Shown here piece after piece: positions 3,885 to 15,533 of a DNA stretch of 64,000 nucleotides (the first letter of the stretch is position 1; every line of letters starts with the position of its first letter). Origin of the DNA: Brachyspira murdochii DSM 12563 (GTDB taxonomy: Bacteria; Spirochaetota; Brachyspiria; Brachyspirales; Brachyspiraceae); contig NC_014150.1 in assembly GCF_000092845.1 (NCBI RefSeq), positions 2,043,510 through 2,107,509 on the forward strand, in the 5' to 3' direction. The notes under the pieces were generated by a model. That model searched no databases. It worked only from the letters and a program-made list of their open reading frames with translations, and was not told the DNA's origin. The position numbers and the translations under genes are program-made.

Positions 3885-6800
3885 TTATTGTCCGTTATTC
3901 ATAGAAGCTAAATACTGCATTATCTGAAGTCTTCTGCTTTCTACATCTTTGTCCAAATTAGCTATAACATCATTAGTTGCTGCTAAAGGCGACATTACTC
4001 TTTTGAAGTCATTATATATATTTAAAGCCTCTATAACTTTGTTTTGTTCTATATATATATGACCTATAGCATATAAGGCAAAAGCACCGTCCTGATTAAG
4101 CTCATTAGTGTATTTAGAATATGTACTTACAGCTTCATCATACATTTTACTGTTGAGATATATATTAGCTAAATCAAATTCAAGTCCTGTTCTTTCGTCT
4201 TTAGTTAAATCTCTCATTTTAAGAGTATCAATTAATGTATTTATAGAACTCGCAGTGTCTCCTATGTTAGCATATAGTATTGATATATCTTTATTAACAG
4301 CTACCATATGCTCTCTTGTTCTTGCTCTTTTTCTAGCCTCTAATTTTGCCCATAGAGTTTCTTCTATATCCTGTCTGTTTTGATATATATAATTAGCATA
4401 AGAAGAATAGCTTTCAAAAGTATCTTCTTTCACAGCCTGAGCTTTAAGATTATCAGCCTGCTGTCTTGTAGTTTTAAGCTGTGCATCTATTCTAGCAATA
4501 AATTGTTTTATCTGCTGATAAGTTTGATTCTGCTCTCTTGCCGCATCTCCCATATCTTTTCCTCTGTGGAAAGTTTTTTCTGCTCTGGTAAGCACATCTT
4601 TGGCTTTATTTAAATACTCTGCCTCTTTATCATAAGGGGTATCTTTTGAGCGTGCCAAATATTCATAAGAAGCAGCTAAGTTAAAATAAGCAGGATAAAT
4701 AAGTTTTTCTAATTTTATAAGCTCTTCAAACATTAAAGCCGCTCTTTCATAATTGCCGTCCATAATAGCCTGATTGCCCACAGCAAAGTATACATTAGAC
4801 ATATCAAAACCTATAGTAAGCATTCTTTCTTCTTCCTGCTTTTTTAAGTCCTGAAACTCTGCTATTTTTTGATTAGCTTCATCTCTTGTAATGCCGTTTT
4901 TAGCAATGTCTCCATTACCCATAAAGCCTAAAAGTTTTTGATACATTTTTATTTTTCTGTTATACATATCTATTTTAGCAAGAGAATATGAACTTACAAA
5001 TATCTCTCTTGTTAAGAAATCATAATGAGAAATCTCTTCAGCAGTTCCCTGCATAGTATAGCTGTTCCAGTAATCTTCTTCCGTTTTAAACTCTGGGAAA
5101 GGAAGCTCATACATTTTTACGAAAGTTATCTCTTCGTTTCCGTCATAAATATTTTTTCTTGCTGCTGAAATTAAGCCTTCATCTAATAATGCATTTAAAT
5201 CTGCTGCTATTTTTTCATTCTCATAATCTCTTTTTAAATGCTCTTTAGCAATATCTTTATAGTCATTAACAGTAAGTACCTTAAAGAACTCTAATTCATC
5301 AACTAAAGCATATTTAATAGGCTGAACTTTGAATACTAAACCATAAGCCTTGAAGTAGTAATCACCAAGCCTGTAAAGTCCGTCTCGTCTCCAAGCCATA
5401 TAATAAGGTCTGCCAGACTCTATAAAGTCTTTATCAACGGCATCGCTTATATCTCCTAGCCATCTGCCGTCTGTTTTCATAAGGTTTCCGTATATTCTTT
5501 CAAATACATTACCCTTTTGGTCATATATTTTTAAATCTGGTCTTCTTCTTTCAACCATAGTGTAATATACAAGTCCGAATACTTGGTTGTCTCCTCCTTC
5601 TGTAGCAAATATTGCATTATCTGGAAGAGAGTTCATCATATTGTATGAATAGTCATGGTTGCTAAAATCTTTTGAGTTATTATTACGGCTTAGATTCATT
5701 ACAAATATAGGAATCATTATTGCAAATATTGCTATAAGTGATATTGCATGATAAGGTTTTAATGTGGTATCTGCACTTTCTTCTTTAGAAGGTTTTAATA
5801 CATTTTTTATATTAGTATTAAAATATTCCATATACCATTGAAAACCAAAGCCTATTATCACAAGCATATATAAAGTTGCTGGAAGGAAGAATACTTCTAC
5901 AAATGATAAAGTTCTAACACTTGGAGGCGGATTAGTATATGCCATAAGTGATACGGCAAAACTTAAAAGCCCAAATACTGAGAATATACCTATAAATTTA
6001 TTTTTCTTAAATATTTGAAATAGTCCCGGTATTAAGAACAGTAATCCTAATACTGTCAATTGAGTTTTGAATATATTTATCAAAGCAGATACTTGTTCTG
6101 GGTGAAGTATGAATGCTGCAGCAACATCGTTTCCAGAAGTACCGTACTGTTTTCTATGTATCATACTAAATAAATAGCTTAAATTTTCCCAGCCTGAAGG
6201 TTCATTTAATTGTCCCCAGTTTAGAGGAGGCAAAGCTCTTGCTCTTATAGGCATGTACGCATATATCATAACGCCTACTGCAAGCATTAAAAGCATTTTA
6301 TAATATGATATTGATATGCCTGTTATAAAATCATTATCATTATTAAATTTATCTATTTTGCACAAGAAATATCTATATACTAAGCACCAAACAACTACTA
6401 AAAATAAAGGCCAGAATACTAAAAACATTCCCTTGTATAGAGTAGGGTAGAATGGAGCTTTAAGATTCTGTATCATATCTGGTCTTAAATAAGAACCGTT
6501 TGCAAGTGCTGTAAATATATCGCTCATTATATTCATATCAGCAAAAGGCTTAAATATTATAGAGAATATTGAATCATTAGAAGCTACCCCCGGAGGAAAA
6601 TATAAATAAGCCTCATAATTCATAATAAATCTATAGTATCCGAAACCGCCTATAAATAATAATACCAAAAATACGAATATTGATATAAAAGAAGTTTCTA
6701 TATGATTAATGTATCTGTCTTTATGAACCAAAAATAAAACTATTGCTATAAACAAAAGCGGAGCAAAAGCAAAAGGTAAAGTTACATGGTGATTTGCAAG

Positions 6801-7622
6801 TGCTACACCATAAAGAAATCCAAAAGCCATTAAATATTTGTTTCCATAATAAGGCACTTCATCATCGGCATGTTTCCATACATTTTCAAACCAATAAACA
6901 AGTATTAAAAGCATAGAAGCTATTTGAAGTATGTTCAAACTGTAAACTTCTGCCATAGTAGCCTGTGCCCACATATTATCAGATATAGCGAATGCAATAC
7001 TTGCAAAAAGTGCTGGTATTTGTACTATTGGAGAAAATCCTCTTTCAACTCTGTTTTGACCCAATACTTTTACCATAATAAGATAGAAGAAAATCATAGC
7101 AATAGCAGCACAAGTACCAGAAAATAAATTGGTTCTCCAAGCTATATTTCCTACTGGTATATAAGTAAATAATTTGGACATTAAAGTGTAGAAAGGATAT
7201 CCCGGGGCATGCCCTACACCCAAGAAGTAAGCAGCCGTTGTAAGCTCTCCGTTATCTCCTGCTGAAAGTGAAGGAGTGAGTGTAAACAGATACAAAAAGA
7301 ATGTGAAAAGAAAAGCTATAGCAGCAAATACAGCGTCTATTTTTGAAAGATGATATGGTTTTATTTCATACCTTTTAAAAATAGGCTCCTCATTATCTTT
7401 TTTTGAGAATAGTTTTGAAAGTATATTTCCGCTGTTTTCTTTATTAGATTTTTCTTTTTTACTATTATTTTTTGTACTAGTTTTTTGACTATTTTGCAGA
7501 TTATTAATATATTCTTCTATTAATTCTCTGTCTTTTTCTAGCTTTTTTGTAAGCTCATCAATGCTTTTATTTTTATAATTAGCTTTGATATATTCTTTTT
7601 CCAGATGTGAAAGTTTTGCCAT
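3885..7622 (-). CDS. large polytopic membrane protein: charged N-terminal coiled-coil segment, GT-C/PMT-like (DUF2723-like) multi-TM core, C-terminal TPR repeats
   Basis: 1245 aa. The first ~80 aa are K/E/N-rich. Roughly 12 or more hydrophobic helices span residues 90-640. The C-terminal 350 aa contain repeated A-x-Y-x-x-A-x-x-Y TPR-like units. Confidence 0.45.
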   Translation of the reverse strand: MAKLSHLEKEYIKANYKNKSIDELTKKLEKDRELIEEYINNLQNSQKTSTKNNSKKEKSNKENSGNILSKLFSKKDNEEPIFKRYEIKPYHLSKIDAVFAAIAFLFTFFLYLFTLTPSLSAGDNGELTTAAYFLGVGHAPGYPFYTLMSKLFTYIPVGNIAWRTNLFSGTCAAIAMIFFYLIMVKVLGQNRVERGFSPIVQIPALFASIAFAISDNMWAQATMAEVYSLNILQIASMLLILVYWFENVWKHADDEVPYYGNKYLMAFGFLYGVALANHHVTLPFAFAPLLFIAIVLFLVHKDRYINHIETSFISIFVFLVLLFIGGFGYYRFIMNYEAYLYFPPGVASNDSIFSIIFKPFADMNIMSDIFTALANGSYLRPDMIQNLKAPFYPTLYKGMFLVFWPLFLVVVWCLVYRYFLCKIDKFNNDNDFITGISISYYKMLLMLAVGVMIYAYMPIRARALPPLNWGQLNEPSGWENLSYLFSMIHRKQYGTSGNDVAAAFILHPEQVSALINIFKTQLTVLGLLFLIPGLFQIFKKNKFIGIFSVFGLLSFAVSLMAYTNPPPSVRTLSFVEVFFLPATLYMLVIIGFGFQWYMEYFNTNIKNVLKPSKEESADTTLKPYHAISLIAIFAIMIPIFVMNLSRNNNSKDFSNHDYSYNMMNSLPDNAIFATEGGDNQVFGLVYYTMVERRRPDLKIYDQKGNVFERIYGNLMKTDGRWLGDISDAVDKDFIESGRPYYMAWRRDGLYRLGDYYFKAYGLVFKVQPIKYALVDELEFFKVLTVNDYKDIAKEHLKRDYENEKIAADLNALLDEGLISAARKNIYDGNEEITFVKMYELPFPEFKTEEDYWNSYTMQGTAEEISHYDFLTREIFVSSYSLAKIDMYNRKIKMYQKLLGFMGNGDIAKNGITRDEANQKIAEFQDLKKQEEERMLTIGFDMSNVYFAVGNQAIMDGNYERAALMFEELIKLEKLIYPAYFNLAASYEYLARSKDTPYDKEAEYLNKAKDVLTRAEKTFHRGKDMGDAAREQNQTYQQIKQFIARIDAQLKTTRQQADNLKAQAVKEDTFESYSSYANYIYQNRQDIEETLWAKLEARKRARTREHMVAVNKDISILYANIGDTASSINTLIDTLKMRDLTKDERTGLEFDLANIYLNSKMYDEAVSTYSKYTNELNQDGAFALYAIGHIYIEQNKVIEALNIYNDFKRVMSPLAATNDVIANLDKDVESRRLQIMQYLASMNNGQ

Positions 7623-7748: not shown

Positions 7749-7936
7749 ACCTATTATCTATTAGTTTATATAACTTTACATAATAATATAATTTTTTAAA
7801 TAATTCAACTATAGAAATTACTATTATATAATAAAATCGCTTATTATTCAAGAATGTAAAACCTATTTTATATTGAAATAAAATAAGTTTTAAATTATAG
7901 TAGAATTATATTTAGAAGACATATTTAGGAAATAAA

Positions 7937-8416
7937 ATGAAATTCTTGAAAAAAATAGATATTATATTAATACTCATTATAATTTCTTACATCTTTTATA
8001 ATGATTTGATAAAAAATAATAATAAAAACTTAGAAAACAATATTCATAAATTAAACTATATAGAAAATAACTATATTATAGAAAATAATTATAATACAGA
8101 CTCTGAAATTGAATATCAAAATATAAGAAGAAGAAGATACAGACATGATCTTGACCTTGAAGGGGACAGAGTATTTATTATGTTCACAGGCTCTCTTATT
8201 ATAGGTTTTTTACTTAGTCTTATATTATCATCAAAAAATAAATTCTATAAAAAAGAATTAATACCTGCTAAAATAATACTCATTTTATCTGTTATAATTA
8301 CAGGGATAATTATTTTTATAAACTATGAAAATATAAAAAACATATTGGAGTATTTATCTTTGCCTATAGGCTTTATAATAGGCTTTGTATTGGCAAAATT
8401 AATATTTAAAAAATAA
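7937..8416 (+). CDS. small N-rich membrane protein, paralog family member P1
   Basis: 159 aa with an N-terminal TM anchor, an N/I/E-rich linker, an IRRRRYRHD basic motif and 2-3 C-terminal TM helices. It is paralogous to 12398-12970 (the aligned segment is IRRRWNRDRYHYD). Confidence 0.5.
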   Translation: MKFLKKIDIILILIIISYIFYNDLIKNNNKNLENNIHKLNYIENNYIIENNYNTDSEIEYQNIRRRRYRHDLDLEGDRVFIMFTGSLIIGFLLSLILSSKNKFYKKELIPAKIILILSVIITGIIIFINYENIKNILEYLSLPIGFIIGFVLAKLIFKK

Positions 8417-8448
8417 TATATTTACTTAAATTAAACTTTATTTTAATT

Positions 8449-8650
8449 ACCGCCCTTTAAGATTTGTAAGCCTATTTTTTATTAATAATCTTCATCTATA
8501 TTTAAAAGTTACATTTATAATTTTTAACACCCACCAATTTTTTTTAAATTTATTATTCTATTACCGCACGCAGAATTAAACTAAAAATATATATTTATTT
8601 ATAATTCAAATTTTATCATTCTTTAAATTTCATTTACCGTGTGTTAAATC
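8449..8650. repeat. intergenic GC-box repeat element, copy 2
   Basis: The first ~95 bp (CCGCCCTTTAAGATTTGTAAGCC...TTTAAAAGTTACATTTATAATTTTTAACACCCACC) are roughly 90% identical to 11036-11125, judged by eye. Further boxes are CCGCACGCAGAATTAAAC and CCGTGTGTTAAATC. Confidence 0.6.
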
Positions 8651-8871
8651 TAATCAAAGCCTAATATATATTATAATTAATCTTTCAGCTAAATATAAAA
8701 TACAATTCATAAATAACAACAAAAAAGTAACTATATATTGAATAATCAAACTATTAAAATATATTTTTATACTTTTTTTGTACACAACTATATTTTTATA
8801 GTAAATAAACATTGACAAAAAATAAAACTCATAGTACTTTTTTTGCAAAATATTATTTAAGAGGTTATAAA

Positions 8872-10101
8872 ATGAAAAAAATTATTTATTTATTTATGGT
8901 ATTTTTGACAATTGTCAATTTTTGGGGATGTGCTAAAAATAACAATGTTACTGCTCCTTCTTCAAGTATTAAAAAAACTGAAATTTCGTTTTCATATTTA
9001 GATGATCAATATCAAATTTCAGAAAATAAAACCGATAATATTCTCATGAAAACAAAAGATATAGCAGAAAATTTTTCTTTAATATCAAAAAAAACAGGAG
9101 AAAACGAATATACTGCTATAATAACTGATGAACAAAATAATATATCTGTTGCTATGGTATATAAAGATAATAAAGAATTTCCAGATCATATTTCTTTTTC
9201 TAAAGATGATAATTTAATTAGAGGTACAGCTTCAGATCATGTTAATGGGGCATTTGATGTATTGTGGAGTATGAATGGTATGGAAGAAGTTTTTTATAAT
9301 ATTAAATTATCTGATGATATATATAATTATAATAATATTTCTTCTTTAGATTCAAAAGAAAATTATCATGCTAAAACTCTAATTATAAGTTTAAAAATAT
9401 GGGATGCTATTAATAATTATGTTCAGGATAGTAATAATCAGCCTAAAGGAAGATTTTTCTTTTTTATTTTTGGAATAATAGCAGCAGTTGCCGCAGCAAC
9501 AGCTGCAACAGTAGCCACATTCGTTACAGCATTAGTAGTAACAGCTGTAGTATTAACTATAGGAGCAATAGTATCTACTCCAGTTGTTCCGCCAGCAATA
9601 AAACCAGATCCTGAAAACCCTACTTCATATCCTGATATTTCTACTTTTAATGTATTATATAATGGGGAAAAAATAGATAATAATACTACATTTACAATAG
9701 ATTATGATACAGGAGAGATAAATGTGAGAAAATCAGTTATGTTAAATCCTGAGTATTATAAGAATGCAAGACTAACTTTAAATCTATCTCATTCTGGGGC
9801 TAAAAACTCTAATAATGAATTAGAAGTTTTTGTAAAAATGGATGGAAATCATGGAGATCCTATTTCATTAATAAATGCTTATTATAATTTTTTTATGAAT
9901 GAGGAGCAAATTGGTTTTAGTAAAGATAATGAATATAAAATAGCGGATTTAGGATTCTCAAAAAGTAATTATATGAAATTGGATATAGTTAAAAAAAATA
10001 AAACTCCTGATAATTTTAATAATTTAATTTTAAAATTTGTATTTACAAATGTAAAAAGATTTGGTAAAATTGGAAAAGAATTTAAAATTCAAATAAATTA
10101 G
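8872..10101 (+). CDS. putative lipoprotein with an internal Ala/Val/Thr-rich hydrophobic segment
   Basis: MKKIIYLFMVFLTIVNFWGC has a lipobox-like Cys. The ATG at 8872 is preferred over the ORF-track start at 8812 because of the signal peptide. An ATTGACAAAAAA box sits upstream at ~8813. The internal stretch AAVAAATAATVATFVTALVVTAVVLTIGAIV is probably a TM segment. Confidence 0.45.
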   Translation: MKKIIYLFMVFLTIVNFWGCAKNNNVTAPSSSIKKTEISFSYLDDQYQISENKTDNILMKTKDIAENFSLISKKTGENEYTAIITDEQNNISVAMVYKDNKEFPDHISFSKDDNLIRGTASDHVNGAFDVLWSMNGMEEVFYNIKLSDDIYNYNNISSLDSKENYHAKTLIISLKIWDAINNYVQDSNNQPKGRFFFFIFGIIAAVAAATAATVATFVTALVVTAVVLTIGAIVSTPVVPPAIKPDPENPTSYPDISTFNVLYNGEKIDNNTTFTIDYDTGEINVRKSVMLNPEYYKNARLTLNLSHSGAKNSNNELEVFVKMDGNHGDPISLINAYYNFFMNEEQIGFSKDNEYKIADLGFSKSNYMKLDIVKKNKTPDNFNNLILKFVFTNVKRFGKIGKEFKIQIN

Positions 10102-10112
10102 GAAATTATCTT

Positions 10113-10964
10113 ATGAAAATAAAGTTACTCTTAACCATCATCATAACTATTTTATTGTTTAATATTCATATTTTATATTCAATGAAGTTTTCTCCTGAAT
10201 TTGGTATATTTATGAATATAGGGGCTTCAAAAATTTTTACTAAAACAGAAGTTGATCAAAATGAATATTCATACCTTGTTGATTTTAGAACTATAAAAGG
10301 GGATATATTTTTAGATTTTGAAGCTATTTTTCAATTAGGTGTAAAAAATAATATTAATAATAATATTGTTACAGGCTTAACTTCCCTTTTAGAAATAGGA
10401 TACAGCCCTTATATAATAAGCACAAAATATGAAGGTGAAAGTGATAGTATATATTATATCTTCACTGATAGAGTTATTCTTTATAGTTTAGTTTTAGGAG
10501 CTTTAGAGAAAATAGTTTTTAACAATTTTTCTATAGGTATAGGAGCAGGTGTATTATTTCCAATATCTGGTTTTGCTGCATCTAATCATCCTAGGAATAT
10601 AATATCAGTAATGCCTAGTGAAAATTTATCAATAATTTCACCATATAATAGTAAATTAGATTATGCATATATAAAAAAGCTATTTAAAGTTCCTGTTGCT
10701 CCCTATATAAAGATAACAGCAGAATATGCATTCAAACCTTATAAAATTGATAATGCTGAAATGGATTTTGTACTTGGAGCATATTTAAGTTATAACTTTG
10801 GTATGCAGTATGATGTTTCTGTATTGAATAGTAATATACCAAAGCAGGGAGATAATGGACTTATCATACCCGGTATATCTAGTAAAGATATGTTCTATAA
10901 ATATGATTATTCCAATTTGGATTTTGGGGTTACATTTGGTGTTTCTTTTAGAGCTTTAGAATAA
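10113..10964 (+). CDS. hypothetical secreted/outer-membrane-like protein, paralog of 47044-47799
   Basis: 283 aa with an N-terminal hydrophobic leader. It shares LFKVPVAPYIKITAEYAF...YNFGMQYDVSVLNSN with FKAPIMPYIKLTVEGFIY...YNFGMQYKTDVVNSN in the other copy. Amphipathic strands alternate, consistent with a beta-barrel. Confidence 0.4.
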   Translation: MKIKLLLTIIITILLFNIHILYSMKFSPEFGIFMNIGASKIFTKTEVDQNEYSYLVDFRTIKGDIFLDFEAIFQLGVKNNINNNIVTGLTSLLEIGYSPYIISTKYEGESDSIYYIFTDRVILYSLVLGALEKIVFNNFSIGIGAGVLFPISGFAASNHPRNIISVMPSENLSIISPYNSKLDYAYIKKLFKVPVAPYIKITAEYAFKPYKIDNAEMDFVLGAYLSYNFGMQYDVSVLNSNIPKQGDNGLIIPGISSKDMFYKYDYSNLDFGVTFGVSFRALE

Positions 10965-11032
10965 TTTGATATTTGATAAAAACCGTTATGATAGTGAATA
11001 TATCATGGCGGTTTTTAATTTTATTCTAATTC

Positions 11033-11236
11033 CCCGCCCTTTAAGATTTGTAATCCTTATTTTTTATTAATAAACTTCATCTACATTTAAAAGTTACATT
11101 TATATTTTTAACGCCCGCCCAAGTGTTTATTAACTTTTGAAACTTACTCAACGCACGTTAAACGCATTACTAAAAAACATCTGAATTATAATACAAAATG
11201 TATTTATTTTTTGGATTCGTTCTGCGTGCGTTAAAT
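11033..11236. repeat. intergenic GC-box repeat element, copy 3
   Basis: Boxes in the same order as the other copies: CCCCGCCCTTTAAGA, CGCCCGCCCAAGTGTTTATT, CAACGCACGTTAAACGC and CTGCGTGCGTTAAATA. Confidence 0.6.
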
Positions 11237-11267
11237 ATATGCTTATTTTAATAATACTTTATAAAAA

Positions 11268-11930
11268 CTATATTGATGATTTTTGTTTTTCCATTTCTTC
11301 ATATTTTTCAAAATCTTTAAGAGCTTCCTTGTTTTTATTCAATTTCTTTTTAATACTTCCTCTTAGAAAATATGCAAATGGATTATCAGGATTGAGTTCT
11401 ATTACTTTATCAATATCTTCCATACCTTTTTTATGCATGTCCAATCCAAATTTAGAAATACCTCTTAAATAGTATGCTTCAGAAAAATTAGCGTCTAATT
11501 CTATAACTTTATTAAAATCTGATATTGCCTCTTCATTCTTATTCAATACTAATTTAGAAAGCCCCCTATGCAGATACGCTTTTACATAATTGGAATCTAA
11601 TTCTATAGCTTTATCAAAATCTTTTAAAGCTTCTATATCCATATTTAACGCTACCATGTTAATACCTCTATAGAAATAGAACTTTGCACAATTTGGATCT
11701 AATTCTATAGCCCTATTGAAATCTTCTAAAGCCTCCTCTTTTTGGCTAAGTAATAATTTAGAAACACCTCTGTATAGGTAGCTTTTTGCATAATTAGGGT
11801 TTAATTCTATAGCCTTATCAAATACCTCTAATGCATTTTTATAGTCTTTATTGTTATAGTATGTAACAGCTTCTTTATAATAATTTTTAAATGATTCGTA
11901 CATAGTTATTTTCTCCGTTAAAATATTCAT
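11268..11930 (-). CDS. TPR repeat protein
   Basis: 220 aa made of six or more 34-residue units of the pattern ALxDFxKAIELxPNxAxAYxxRG. Confidence 0.8.
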   Translation of the reverse strand: MNILTEKITMYESFKNYYKEAVTYYNNKDYKNALEVFDKAIELNPNYAKSYLYRGVSKLLLSQKEEALEDFNRAIELDPNCAKFYFYRGINMVALNMDIEALKDFDKAIELDSNYVKAYLHRGLSKLVLNKNEEAISDFNKVIELDANFSEAYYLRGISKFGLDMHKKGMEDIDKVIELNPDNPFAYFLRGSIKKKLNKNKEALKDFEKYEEMEKQKSSI

Positions 11931-12397
11931 TAATAATTCTTATCCATTTAGAATTTATAACAGTATTTTAAGCTGAAATTTTAATAATTCTTTTACAATA
12001 TTTTTTATTTATTATAGTATAATTATAAGATTAATATTTTATTTATAATAAATCTTATATTATAGACTATTTTTACTTCTTACTTATTGCAATAATATAA
12101 ATTTTTAAATAAAAAATCAACAATAAAAAATATATTAGCCTTAAATTAATAAATAACATTTATAATTTTTTTATTAAAATTTATTTTATCTTTCACTGAT
12201 TCAAAAAAATATTAGTATTTAATTATTAAATATATGCTTATTAAAAAACTTTGGGCAAGTTCTAATAGATGTTAATTAAGATGTAAGTAACAATTTAGAG
12301 TAAAAAAGATATAGGGTGGGGGGGATAATAAAAACTGATTGAAATAAAAATGATTTAAATTTATAATAAATGAAGGATTATTAAAAAGGCATGTATT

Positions 12398-12970
12398 ATG
12401 AAAATTAGTGTATTAGCAGTTATATTAGTTATTCTTTCTTTTATATTTTATAATGAAATGACAAAACATCATTCTAATATATATATTACAATAGAAGAAA
12501 GTAACAATGAAGAAAATAACATCTATAATGGAAACTATATAGTAAGTGATAATGATATTATTTTAGAAAATAGTTATGATTTTGATAACAGTATAGAAAC
12601 TAAAGAAATTAGACGCCGTTGGAATAGAGATAGATATCATTATGATGCAGATTTTGGAGAGGCTTCAGAAGATTTATTTATTAGATTGGTAATAATATTT
12701 TTTATAGGATGTGCCATTATAGGCATTTTAGCAGATATGCTTTTTTTTAAAAATTACTCTTATAGATTTTATATTATTACATTTGCTGTAATTCTTATAA
12801 TGAGTTTGGCTATTATTTATAAAATACATGGAAACATGGCTATTTTTAATATGAATGGAAGTATTGAAAGCATGATAGAGTTATTAGCTTTTTTTTCCGG
12901 CGGTATACTGTCATTTATAGCATTGAGAATTAGTAAATACCTTAGAGATAATGATAAAAATAATAAATAA
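12398..12970 (+). CDS. small N-rich membrane protein, paralog family member P2
   Basis: 190 aa with the same architecture as 7937-8416: N-terminal TM, N/E-rich linker, IRRRWNRDRY motif and three C-terminal TM helices. Confidence 0.5.
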   Translation: MKISVLAVILVILSFIFYNEMTKHHSNIYITIEESNNEENNIYNGNYIVSDNDIILENSYDFDNSIETKEIRRRWNRDRYHYDADFGEASEDLFIRLVIIFFIGCAIIGILADMLFFKNYSYRFYIITFAVILIMSLAIIYKIHGNMAIFNMNGSIESMIELLAFFSGGILSFIALRISKYLRDNDKNNK

Positions 12971-13029
12971 TTTTATTTATATAGTGAATCTATTATAAAA
13001 AATAGCAAAATTAAAATTATTAAAATGTC

Positions 13030-13656
13030 TTATTTTGATTTTCTCTTTTCAGTTCTTTTAATTATATAAACAATTACAATTGTAGATAAAATAAAAATTA
13101 ATGATATTATTATATAATCTTTTAATGTAATATCCCCAAATAAAACAGAAGCAAAAAGATTGTTGTATCCTAATAATAAGTGAGCAATACCTTTTTGATT
13201 TGATAAAGTTGATTTCAAATCATTAGTATAATTGCTTGTAATGTTTTGATTATTGATAGCTGTATCAGTTGACGGAGCATTAATAAATGCTGCATATAAA
13301 AGAATAAGAAAAAATATAAAAGCAGCAAAAAATGTTTTTTTTATATTGTTATCTTTTATATTAAATAATGCTGTTATAACACCAATTGCTATAAATATAT
13401 ATTCATAAGTATTTTCAATGTATTTTATTATAAAAAATTCTGATACTCCAAAAAATGCTATTATTAATATTATAACTATACCAGGACCTAAACCATAACT
13501 GTCACCTAAAAAATCATCGAGATTCAAATCCCCTTTAATCAACACTAATATAAAAAATACTATTATAAAAGAGCATAAAAATAATGCTGACATTCTAAAT
13601 AAATCATTTTCTGGTATATTGATTTTGTATATTAAATTAAAAATTATATCTTTCAT
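13030..13656 (-). CDS. small polytopic membrane protein (P3)
   Basis: 208 aa with 5-6 hydrophobic helices. Its start lies 21 nt downstream of the stop of 13678-14229, so the two are probably co-transcribed. Confidence 0.45.
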   Translation of the reverse strand: MKDIIFNLIYKINIPENDLFRMSALFLCSFIIVFFILVLIKGDLNLDDFLGDSYGLGPGIVIILIIAFFGVSEFFIIKYIENTYEYIFIAIGVITALFNIKDNNIKKTFFAAFIFFLILLYAAFINAPSTDTAINNQNITSNYTNDLKSTLSNQKGIAHLLLGYNNLFASVLFGDITLKDYIIISLIFILSTIVIVYIIKRTEKRKSK

Positions 13657-13677
13657 AAATATTTTTTATTCTCCTTA

Positions 13678-14229
13678 TTAAGGCTTAGATTTATAATTTG
13701 CGAGCAACAAACCTAATATAATGCCAGCTGCTATACTTAAATATTCTTTGACAGTTATAATATTATCTTTTAACATAAAGAAAGCAAATATAGTAACTCC
13801 AATACACACTAATGGAAGTAAATTAATTATTAACTCCTTCTTATTTTTTAATCCTTCTTTTTTTATTTTATGAATTGCTAAAATACCAAATAGTGCTGAT
13901 GAAAAGCTAAGAATAAACATGATTGTAACTCTAAAAAATAAACTCTCTGGTATCCATTCAAATCTCACGTAATGAATACGCCTAGGATTTAGAGAATGTA
14001 TAACTAAATTAAGTAAATCATATTTTTCATTAGTAAAATCATATTTTTGATAATATTTATCAATCGTTTCTGATTTATTATTTACTGCATCGTACTTATT
14101 TAATATTGCAGGGGCATTAATAACAAACAATATTAATCCTATAAGTATTGCCATAGTAGGTATAATAAGAAGAATAGCTCTTATATAAATATTTTCTTCT
14201 CTATCTTTTCTTTCTTTTCTTTTTCTCAT
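13678..14229 (-). CDS. small membrane protein (P4), related to P1/P2
   Basis: 183 aa with a basic N-terminus, one TM, a linker, a NPRRIHYVRFEW basic/aromatic motif and two or more TM helices. A TATTGACAAAAAAAG box lies upstream at 14447-14461 on the minus strand. Confidence 0.45.
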   Translation of the reverse strand: MRKRKERKDREENIYIRAILLIIPTMAILIGLILFVINAPAILNKYDAVNNKSETIDKYYQKYDFTNEKYDLLNLVIHSLNPRRIHYVRFEWIPESLFFRVTIMFILSFSSALFGILAIHKIKKEGLKNKKELIINLLPLVCIGVTIFAFFMLKDNIITVKEYLSIAAGIILGLLLANYKSKP

Positions 14230-14432
14230 AATAACTTTATTATTTTTATTCTATAATTGTCTGTATTTATAAATATATTTTTATTAAAATATAATGATTA
14301 AGAAAAACAATACTTTTTTATTTATGATGATATAGACTTTTATAATAGAAAATAAAACTGTATTGTATAAATTAATAAATGCCTATAATTGAATTTAGAT
14401 GCATTCTACTTTTTTCATAATCCTATTATCAT

Positions 14433-14461
14433 TTTATTATATATGCTTTTTTTGTCAATAG
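14433..14461 (-). promoter_or_regulatory. putative promoter with the shared box CTTTTTTTGTCAATA (an extended -35 on the minus strand)
   Basis: The reverse complement reads TATTGACAaaaaaagcatatataaTAAAAT. The identical 15-mer recurs at 15137-15151. Confidence 0.3.
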
Positions 14462-14520
14462 AGCAGACTTGTTTCAAAACTTGTTAGTGCTTGTAGTTTT
14501 TTGATTTAATATTTTTTTAA

Positions 14521-15081
14521 TTAAGAAATTTTCCTAATTATAATATATGCTATAGAACCAAAAATTGCTCCGCTGAAAGCTAAATATTCTCTATTACTTT
14601 CCATTTTTATTACTATTACTATTAAAACGAATGCCATTAATGCCAGAGTAATCAACCCTACTAATATTGTTTCTATAGTCTCTCTAATATCTTCTTTTAG
14701 TTTTATCTCTTCATGATAATATTTTTGGGCTATAAGTGAGGTAATTATAAGCGATAATATATAAGTCAGTACATATACAATTAATACTCTCACACCAACA
14801 ATATTCAAATCCGCTTTTGATCCGCTATATTTAGATGATGAAGTTCCTTTTAATAATAATGTTATTATTTTTTGAAGTGTTTCTTCTTTATCAAAATTGT
14901 CAAAATTTGCTGCATTAGTTTGTTTATTATTATCTATTATTTCTTTTTTTTCTTGTATATTTTTATCAGCCTTAGCAAAAATTGTTATTGCAGTAGGAGG
15001 TATAGTACAAGATAAGAAGAGATATATTATTAAAGCTATTACATTAACTTTGCTATCATTTTTTTTCTTTTTAATTTTCAT
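14521..15081 (-). CDS. small membrane protein (P5)
   Basis: 186 aa with a KKKK N-terminus, one TM, a Q/N/K-rich linker and two C-terminal TM helices. The same 15-mer promoter box is found upstream at 15137-15151. Confidence 0.45.
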   Translation of the reverse strand: MKIKKKKNDSKVNVIALIIYLFLSCTIPPTAITIFAKADKNIQEKKEIIDNNKQTNAANFDNFDKEETLQKIITLLLKGTSSSKYSGSKADLNIVGVRVLIVYVLTYILSLIITSLIAQKYYHEEIKLKEDIRETIETILVGLITLALMAFVLIVIVIKMESNREYLAFSGAIFGSIAYIIIRKIS

Positions 15082-15533
15082 TTTTATTTAACTACTCTTT
15101 AATTAAAATTATAGTCTTTCAATTTTAATGAATATACTTTTTTTGTCAATACGGTATATATGTTTATTGAATTATACAAATAAATTATTTTTTTAATTTT
15201 TTATGCATATACTAAATTCATTTTCTCATCATAACTTTATTTTTTTGCTATCTAATCCTATATATTTGTAATTAAAATCTTATAAATGTTAAATATTTTA
15301 TTTTACTTTCTTATATTAAGAGCACATGCAATTATTATAGCAATAATAATATACAGAATCCCTACTATTGTTTTTTGTACGATTTAATACTATATGCTAT
15401 AAACATTATCAGATTATTATTATTTAAGCCTTTTATATTATAAATATAAAAAATTTTTGTAATCCTACTACAATTATAAATAAACCTATTACATAAAACC
15501 ATAATATATTAAAAATCAAAAAGTATAATTAAA

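Follow-up and report, generated by a model that had tools for sequence, protein, structure and literature searches.

A gene cluster that encodes small helical membrane proteins and is confined to the spirochete genus Brachyspira lies within a 64,000-nucleotide stretch of DNA from Brachyspira murdochii DSM 12563. This whole stretch is called the window, and coordinates below are window positions unless a locus number precedes them. Five genes of the cluster, designated A through E, are present in the window, and a 177-amino-acid paralog of E, designated F, is carried by other species. It is probable that these genes are best described as a genus-specific family in a conserved but plastic cluster, with a promoter that has been duplicated and with two members, E and F, that have evolved in an unusual manner. 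This degree of confidence covers the descriptive and evolutionary account, and it does not extend to the functional proposal made further below. The genes and the elements associated with them are as follows.

7873..7901, plus strand: promoter-like site upstream of A, TTGAAA-17-TATAGT (consensus scan, 10 of 12 positions)
7937..8416, plus strand: gene A, 159 amino acids, with an N-terminal helix, an N/I/E-rich linker, the motif IRRRRYRHD, and a three-helix core
12339..12367, plus strand: promoter-like site upstream of B, TTGAAA-17-TATAAT (11 of 12 positions)
12398..12970, plus strand: gene B, 190 amino acids, paralog of A along its full length (hhalign, BLASTP)
13030..13656, minus strand: gene C, 208 amino acids; residues ~14-99 are a possible three-helix core, followed by more helices and an N/S/T-rich linker
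13678..14229, minus strand: gene D, 183 amino acids, with a core in common with A (hhalign)
14230..14430, minus strand: leader from the promoter box to D, homologous to the leader upstream of F in F-bearing species (12-locus alignment)
14431..14460, minus strand: promoter box copy 1, with -35 TTGACA at 14458-14453, a 16-nucleotide spacer, -10 TAAAAT at 14436-14431, and the shared 15-mer at 14446-14460
14521..15081, minus strand: gene E, 186 amino acids, of similar architecture without the Arg-rich motif; paralog of F (hhalign)
15059..15066, minus strand: A8 homopolymer in codons 6-8 of E
15122..15151, minus strand: promoter box copy 2, with -35 at 15149-15144, -10 at 15127-15122, and the shared 15-mer at 15137-15151
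15217..15246, minus strand: second copy (30 nucleotides, 90% identical to 14217-14246) of the D start region with its ribosome-binding site, located upstream of the E promoter

The five open reading frames (ORFs) agree in position and length with an earlier sequence-only reading of this DNA. Protein A is a 100% match to ADG71877.1 and protein D to ADG71883.1 of the type strain, and both are also present in further B. murdochii assemblies. The proteins had been described as rich in asparagine, which holds only to a moderate degree (10-11% Asn in A and B, in a genome of ~27-30% G+C).

Every named match recovered by word-indexed searches with A, with an alignment of A, B, D, and E, and with C belongs to Brachyspira (B. 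murdochii, hampsonii, innocens, pulli, intermedia, hyodysenteriae, suanatina, alvinipulli, pilosicoli, catarrhinii, and sp. G79), and orthologs of A with 66-100% identity are present in at least nine species of the genus. An hmmsearch of 1.84 billion cluster representatives produced 21 matches at E ≤1e-3, which comprise a single representative of each of A, B, D, E, and F, together with fragments and an E-F fusion protein. This exhaustive profile search revealed no relatives beyond the subfamilies of the cluster itself, and a search of the window revealed no further family members. The view that the family is lineage-specific, which had been put forward from the letters of this DNA alone, is thus upheld. 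Scans of A through E against Pfam and NCBIfam gave nothing above threshold, there was no match to the PADLOC defense models, PHROGs gave no match for A, B, D, or E, and no known fold was matched. Similarly, the accession numbers tried for these proteins are absent from literature searches and from the supplements to a study of the Brachyspira surface proteome (PMC4955376).

Three candidate assignments were set aside. When PDB sequences were searched with the family profile, the lone match was a CheR methyltransferase (E 5.7e-4), which aligns over the low-complexity linker and is judged to be spurious. Protein D matches DUF3981 (PF13139) with 21.0 bits (E 4.6e-4), below the gathering score of 25. 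The match covers only the last two helices of D, one D ortholog has a precomputed hit, A, B, C, and E have none, and DUF3981 is itself a family without a known function. Finally, E might be mistaken for a lipoprotein because of the sequence LFLSC, a possibility that is ruled out by the replacement of the cysteine with leucine in several orthologs.

A hydropathy scan identifies one N-terminal and three C-terminal hydrophobic segments in each of A, B, and D. In E, the N-terminal segment is detected along with two of the C-terminal ones, and we infer the last helix from alignments. The layout of C differs from that of A, B, and D. AlphaFold2 models the core of A with predicted local distance difference test values of 70-82. 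In a multiple alignment, the C-terminal core displays an invariant arginine before its first helix and a lysine after that helix, followed by a Lys-Glu segment in the next loop, Glu-Tyr/Leu-Leu before the last helix, and G.I.G within the last helix. The Arg-rich motif is present in A, B, and D only, and E carries KGTSSSKYSGSK at the equivalent position of the multiple alignment. Thus, of the architecture that had been assigned to four proteins, the helices are found in A, B, and D and in part in E, and the Arg-rich motif belongs to three proteins rather than four.

One alternative that can be built on these features is that the core acts as a small channel or pore, which could be holin-like or a dual-topology pair of the Fluc or EmrE type in which D and C would be oppositely oriented. 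A three-helix bundle with a conserved arginine at the membrane edge and a conserved Glu-Tyr before its last helix would suit such a role, as would the adjacency of D and C and our reading that the loop of C matching the Lys-rich loop of A and D is acidic. However, the homology of C to the core is weak, the orientations of C and D are predictions, and there is no lysis or phage context. A pore is therefore regarded as highly unlikely.

Relatedness among the proteins was evaluated with hhalign, using separate subfamily profiles compared in pairs such that no profile held the protein tested against it. As controls, 30 shuffles were made for each pair by permuting columns inside 12-column blocks, which keeps the hydrophobicity profile. 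Every pair reported here scored above all 30 of its block shuffles. The strongest links are A-B (99.2%, E 1.3e-19, 149 columns), E-F (96.3%, E 1.6e-9), and A-D (86.6-89.4%, E 2e-6 to 4.5e-6, with a score of 43 against a block-shuffle maximum of 25.4). Among the five proteins, BLASTP likewise connects A with B (35% identity) and with the C-terminal half of D. These results indicate that A, B, and D are clearly true paralogs with a predicted three-helix membrane core in common.

The remaining links are less secure. Protein E aligns with A in register across 84 columns (8-10%, E 3e-3 to 4e-3), and its score of 24.0 exceeds the shuffle maximum of 21.7 by a narrow margin. The alignment positions R...K...EYL...G.I.G are common to E and to A, B, and D, and a profile that includes E retrieves F (E 2.3e-4). 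The sequences thus point to two robust groups, A/B/D and E/F, in which E is clearly related to F only, joined by a weak, in-register link between E/F and the A/B/D core. The sequence-only reading had treated all of these as one paralog family, which stands for A, B, and D (hhalign 99% and 87%) and is marginal for E. Protein C, which was outside the set of four, may bear the core at its N terminus (residues ~14-99), on the weak evidence of hhalign matches to D (52-56%, E 1.5e-4) and A (33-38%, E 4.5e-4), with scores of 31-34 against shuffle maxima of 23-25. The family profile matches C at 70.7% (E 3.8e-5), and a HMMER core profile does not retrieve it.

The arrangement of the genes was compared among 15 loci from other genomes fetched by means of E and three B. 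hyodysenteriae loci fetched by means of A (coordinates given with an L number refer to such loci). Seven species have a common order, TMEM260-like gene, A, B, C, D, (F), E (B. murdochii, hampsonii, intermedia, alvinipulli, hyodysenteriae, pilosicoli, and sp. G79), and the B. pulli contig ends after E, D, and C. All B. murdochii assemblies long enough to show the order are identical in this regard. Because gene order is conserved across the genus, the cluster is not a strain-specific island, and the idea that this DNA is strain-variable has to be given up for the core genes. That idea was to be abandoned if the region proved both syntenic and invariant across the genus; it is syntenic, and it is not invariant. 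The hallmarks of an island are likewise missing from where they were sought, as the window has neither a tRNA nor an integrase border and no integrase is called within ~10 kb on either side of A in a second B. murdochii strain. Furthermore, the direct repeats border only an inner segment of cargo and not the whole cluster. The neighboring gene, the repeats, and the cargo are as follows.

3885..7622, minus strand: TMEM260-like GT-C glycosyltransferase with C-terminal tetratricopeptide repeats (TPRs) (Pfam PF11028, E 8e-32)
8431..8551, plus strand: GC-box direct repeat copy 1, the left border of the insertion with the lipoprotein and outer membrane protein (OMP) genes (repeat comparison)
8872..10101, plus strand: lipoprotein with lipobox NFWGC; cargo, outside the family
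10113..10964, plus strand: OMP-like beta-barrel candidate; cargo (sub-threshold match to OMP_b-brl_2)
11015..11136, plus strand: GC-box direct repeat copy 2, the right border of the lipoprotein/OMP insertion
11268..11930, minus strand: TPR protein; cargo found in B. murdochii only (Pfam TPR_1, E 1e-37)

Each of these accompanying elements had been noted previously, and the lipoprotein, the OMP-like protein, the TPR protein, and the two repeat copies are all confirmed. The repeats are direct copies of ~120 nucleotides that are 76-82% identical. The segment they help to delimit, which holds the lipoprotein, OMP, and TPR genes (8431-11930), is confined to B. murdochii, with decayed remnants (a lipoprotein pseudogene) in B. 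alvinipulli ATCC 51933. In sp. G79, the spacer between A and B is 448 nucleotides long and includes one copy of the GC-box repeat (L011 12624-13071), and B. alvinipulli carries at least three copies of this spacer element, ~120-220 nucleotides long and in some cases inverted (L025 14147-16781). The element looks like a recurrent site of insertion or recombination. In B. hampsonii 30446, the cargo between A and B is replaced by a gene for a 510-amino-acid protein (L013 13720-15252). This protein has an N-terminal zinc-ribbon-like CxxC...CxxC and membrane segments. In the second B. murdochii strain, the OMP-like cargo has a 67%-identical paralog ~9 kb away, beyond the TMEM260-like gene (L001 3329-4129). 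From that locus the paralog would be placed at about 1262-2062 on the minus strand of the window, and in the second strain it is preceded by a TATTGACAAAAAA-type box.

The family genes themselves are also gained, lost, and fused. Gene F occurs in B. intermedia, B. alvinipulli, B. pilosicoli, and some uncultured genomes, whereas B. murdochii, B. hampsonii 30446, sp. G79, B. pulli, and B. hyodysenteriae lack it. Three genomes have a second, tandem copy of E, and several species have a D gene that is broken by a frameshift, truncated, or present as a remnant only. B. pilosicoli T010 has lost A, and its B gene has an A-type N terminus, which marks it as a fusion by deletion (L019 2245-2691), and the search of cluster representatives recovered an in-frame E-F fusion protein, P0174. 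As judged from these loci, the cluster evolves by tandem duplication (E), deletion (F, D, and A), in-frame fusion (A/B and E/F), and acquisition of unrelated cargo at a repeated spacer element.

Two additional observations concern DNA at and beyond the E end of the cluster. A patchy GC-rich repeat of ~250 nucleotides lies between E-type genes in B. intermedia (L012 4575-4840) and between E and the D-side promoter on the minus strand of the second B. murdochii strain (L001 16532-16945). It is absent from the window, has related copies elsewhere in the fetched loci, and gives no Rfam or tRNA match. In one B. hyodysenteriae assembly (L037 14080-20480), the alcohol dehydrogenase (ADH) gene beyond E is truncated to 257 amino acids and is followed by a phage-type integrase and a run of small genes. 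These genes are absent from two other strains; hence, an integrative element has been inserted beside the cluster.

The TMEM260-like gene adjoins A, or an A/B fusion gene, in seven species and anchors nearly all sufficiently long loci. This constancy might mean that the small proteins are accessory partners or substrates of the GT-C glycosyltransferase, either as small hetero-oligomers that handle a lipid-linked sugar, comparable to ArnE/ArnF for ArnT, or as proteins with periplasmic linkers that become glycosylated. The divergent orientation of A or the fusion gene relative to the GT-C gene, the co-orientation and tight spacing of the paralogs (21 nucleotides for D-C, and ~34 nucleotides for F-D in L012 and L014), and the Ser/Thr/Asn-rich linkers of C and E are all compatible with this idea. 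Partners of the ArnE/ArnF or GtrA type are also small multi-helix paralogs encoded beside a GT-C enzyme. However, the family shows no sequence similarity to the GtrA, SMR, or ArnE/F families, and its members differ from such partners in having one plus three helices and a long linker. They are also dispensable where the enzyme is not: members are lost or frameshifted in many species, whereas the GT-C gene remains intact under strong purifying selection, with a ratio of nonsynonymous to synonymous substitution rates (dN/dS; Nei-Gojobori method, as for all genes here) of 0.04-0.12. B. pilosicoli JJ15 even carries E2-E-F-C without a GT-C gene within 10 kb, and adjacency may merely be the ancestral order. 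A partnership with the enzyme is thus considered improbable.

Two genes of the cluster, D and E, had been proposed to share a promoter box on the basis of an identical 15-mer, TATTGACAAAAAAAG. This 15-mer occurs exactly twice in the window, on the minus strand at 14446-14460 and 15137-15151 (the first site had been placed one base off, at 14447-14461). Its expected count in 64 kb is 0.09, and none of 100 shuffles reached two matches. The 15-mer corresponds to the -35 hexamer and A-tract of a predicted near-consensus sigma-70 promoter, TTGACA-N16-TAAAAT. Both boxes agree with the consensus at 11 of 12 positions and are the two best promoter-like sites in the region. The consensus scan as a whole found 93 sites against 81 expected, which is weak evidence in AT-rich DNA and should be kept in mind for the site upstream of A. 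The window has further boxes with one mismatch, including one upstream of the lipoprotein gene. Thus, the core motif is a common form of strong promoter in this genome, and the specific part is the wider similarity of the two promoter regions, which extends over 44 nucleotides at 77% identity.

Comparisons among species clarify the origin of the two boxes. An extended box, ATATAYACCGTATTGACAAAAAA followed by TAAAAT or TAGAAT, is kept before nearly every E copy examined, and ATATAYACCGTATTGACAAAAAA is also kept before F, or before D where F is absent (~12 loci). Copy 2 of the 15-mer ends 55 nucleotides upstream of the E start codon, and the D-side box lies 216 nucleotides upstream of the D start. 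A 12-locus alignment reveals that the D-side promoter and its ~170-nucleotide leader correspond to the unit found before F in F-bearing species. Because F is missing from B. murdochii, the F promoter and leader now stand before D and then C. The box proposed for D and E is therefore a real promoter-like element, but on the D side it is the promoter and leader of F rather than a D-proximal promoter. These patterns indicate that the promoter was copied together with the E/F genes. Since C lies 21 nucleotides downstream of D, the two genes are probably co-transcribed. The 30-nucleotide copy of the D start region upstream of the E promoter is probably a remnant of an earlier rearrangement of the array.

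The leader upstream of D or F was also considered as a possible RNA element. No Rfam match was found in the region, in the leader, or in four related loci. Invariant helices (ACAATAC/GTATTGT) are predicted for the leader with no covariation, which is evidence neither for nor against an RNA element. A seven-codon ORF in the leader can be dismissed as a coding sequence, as it is not conserved as an ORF in the 12-locus alignment. The heptamers ACAATAC and GTATTGT form an inverted pair ~50 nucleotides apart in the leader (14230-14430), and a palindrome, ATAC-C-GTAT, is located just upstream of the -35 element in most species (14431-14474 and 15122-15165 in the window). The palindrome or the heptamers may serve as an operator for a regulator.

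The most unusual properties of the cluster concern the rates at which E and F change. The TMEM260-like gene has dN/dS values of 0.04-0.12 at synonymous divergences (dS) of 0.18-0.82, and A through D have dN/dS values of 0.13-0.65. For E, dN/dS is ~0.7-4.8 at a dS of 0.01-0.16, with a median of 1.16 over 105 copy pairs and values of 1.4-3.0 for tandem copies within one genome. In the same genome pairs, dS is 0.01-0.08 for E/F compared to 0.19-0.82 for TMEM260, 0.24-0.29 for ADH, and 0.12-0.34 for C, and the E/F values remain in this range even in pairs for which dS reaches 0.55-0.82 in TMEM260 and 0.23-0.34 in C. Sliding windows similarly reveal 93-100% nucleotide identity inside the E/F ORFs, compared to 70-91% in spacers and 75-88% in C, B, and TMEM260. 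That the coding sequences of E and F are far more alike between species than the surrounding DNA suggests that alleles have repeatedly crossed species boundaries. The simplest reading of these sequences is a recent and repeated spread of E/F alleles between species, with amino acid change that is unrestrained. E and F are accordingly candidates for genes that evolve as if in an arms race.

Several points weigh against this interpretation and must be accounted for. Because so few synonymous changes underlie them, the dN/dS values above 1 are not significant when taken one by one (in one example, 17 nonsynonymous changes and one synonymous change give a binomial P of ~0.1 by our own calculation), although the contrast with neighboring genes is large. 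A ratio near 1 for E could reflect relaxed constraint instead. Indeed, the main alternative to the spread of E/F alleles under selection is that these are lineage-specific membrane proteins with a minor or redundant role that undergo drift and decay, such that the features of E and F are produced by relaxed constraint and inter-species recombination. The dN/dS values near 1 for E and of 0.13-0.65 for A-D would be expected under drift, as would the frameshifts and truncations of D, C, E, and A in several species, and dS is generally uneven among neighboring genes (0.27-0.29 for ADH versus 0.55 for TMEM260 in the same pairs). However, ORFs of ~180 codons stay open at ~27% G+C, for which we estimate a chance of ~1e-7 per ORF, and conservation is higher in the E/F coding regions than in their spacers, contrary to what decay would produce. 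In addition, a near-consensus promoter is kept throughout the genus, and all B. murdochii and B. hyodysenteriae assemblies examined have an intact E. With this evidence on both sides, drift and decay are considered unlikely, albeit less so than a partnership with the glycosyltransferase.

A second unusual property of E is the homopolymer in its first codons, which was evaluated from consensus assemblies only. Most loci have eight adenosines (A8), and six E copies from five assemblies have seven (A7; L012 with two copies, L016, L020, L022, and L025). The A7 assemblies are those of B. intermedia DD32 (both E copies), B. intermedia DD9, B. alvinipulli ATCC 51933, and two uncultured Brachyspira genomes. 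The A7 tract places the start codon out of frame with no alternative start, yet three of the six A7 copies are otherwise intact. Other B. intermedia genomes encode full-length, in-frame E proteins, and thus both states exist within one species. Runs of at least eight A or T residues are ~4-fold denser in the family genes than in the window overall. This pattern would fit an on/off switch that operates by slipped-strand mispairing, and it would fit a mutational hot spot equally well.

Homopolymer tracts near the 5′ end are a pattern of contingency (phase-variable) genes, such as the poly-G genes of Campylobacter (PMC2831843). Gene E resembles these genes in that the tract lies in its first codons, a change of one base in length sets the reading frame, and both states occur in B. 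intermedia. It differs from them in that its tract is only A8 and is known from consensus assemblies, in which some variants may be fixed pseudogenes or sequencing errors. Against a switch stands the presence of A8 in every B. murdochii assembly that covers the start of E and in all B. hyodysenteriae assemblies. Furthermore, the A7 alleles could be ordinary inactivating mutations at a hot spot or, in some drafts, homopolymer sequencing errors. The drafts of G79 and B. alvinipulli ATCC 51933 hold several tract frameshifts that may be errors of this type. Metagenome scans for the 5′ tract of E yielded zero contigs and then one, so few that tract lengths could not be tabulated. The 5′ end of E also includes an antisense open frame of 64 codons (window 14897-15091, plus strand) that is open in both E copies of B. 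intermedia as well (63 and 58 amino acids). This frame is probably a by-product of the conserved sequence of E.

What these proteins do can be proposed only tentatively. The family lacks enzyme-like or transporter-like features, and we infer from predicted topology that the proteins would sit in the cytoplasmic membrane with their linkers in the periplasm. They might act there as strongly expressed protective or exclusion-type factors, akin to immunity or superinfection-exclusion proteins. This proposal draws on the changes in E/F copy number, the frameshift tract at the 5′ end of E, the amino acid change in E that is as fast as silent change, and the similarity of E/F across species. Immunity and superinfection-exclusion proteins are likewise small, membrane-embedded, fast-evolving products of variable-copy arrays with strong promoters. 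The family departs from them in having no nearby toxin or phage genes, no PADLOC or PHROGs match, and no relatives on viral contigs. No toxin, phage, or gene-transfer-agent genes were found beside the cluster, and no relatives of E were found on viral contigs or phage genomes. In addition, the topology was predicted by eye, and the core loops, especially those of E, have an ambiguous charge bias. Given that no link to phages, defense systems, or a toxin has emerged, the protective role is treated as a possibility of modest weight.

A more specific version of the protective proposal can be formulated. E and F might be switchable membrane determinants with alleles that sweep between species, perhaps by means of VSH-1-type gene transfer agents, and that control susceptibility or immunity to these particles, to phages, or to a membrane-acting toxin. 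This version is doubtful, and it is given appreciably less credence than the general protective role.

Among spirochetes, a partial parallel is provided by the Erp/OspE-F-Elp loci of Borrelia, which are paralogous gene families with a shared upstream homology box. As in those loci, the Brachyspira paralogs form a lineage-restricted spirochete set, their promoter has been duplicated along with the genes, and recombination between copies reshuffles them. The Borrelia Erp proteins are surface lipoproteins encoded on plasmids or prophages. In contrast, the Brachyspira genes are chromosomal and occupy one conserved locus, and their products are polytopic helical proteins with no conserved lipobox.

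Some members of the genus Brachyspira cause swine dysentery or intestinal spirochetosis in humans and birds, and much of the gene content of the genus is unannotated. The analysis described here turns five hypothetical proteins into a defined genus-specific family, maps which parts of their locus are stable and which are variable, and flags E and F as a candidate arms-race locus. If the arms-race reading is false, the cluster would represent an ordinary lineage-specific family of membrane proteins. If it is true, the locus would provide a way to study how genes move within the genus and how conflict at the surface or envelope plays out, and it might serve as a typing marker. Should E and F prove to be switchable determinants, the cluster would constitute an undescribed contingency locus in an intestinal spirochete, built from a fold family without relatives elsewhere.

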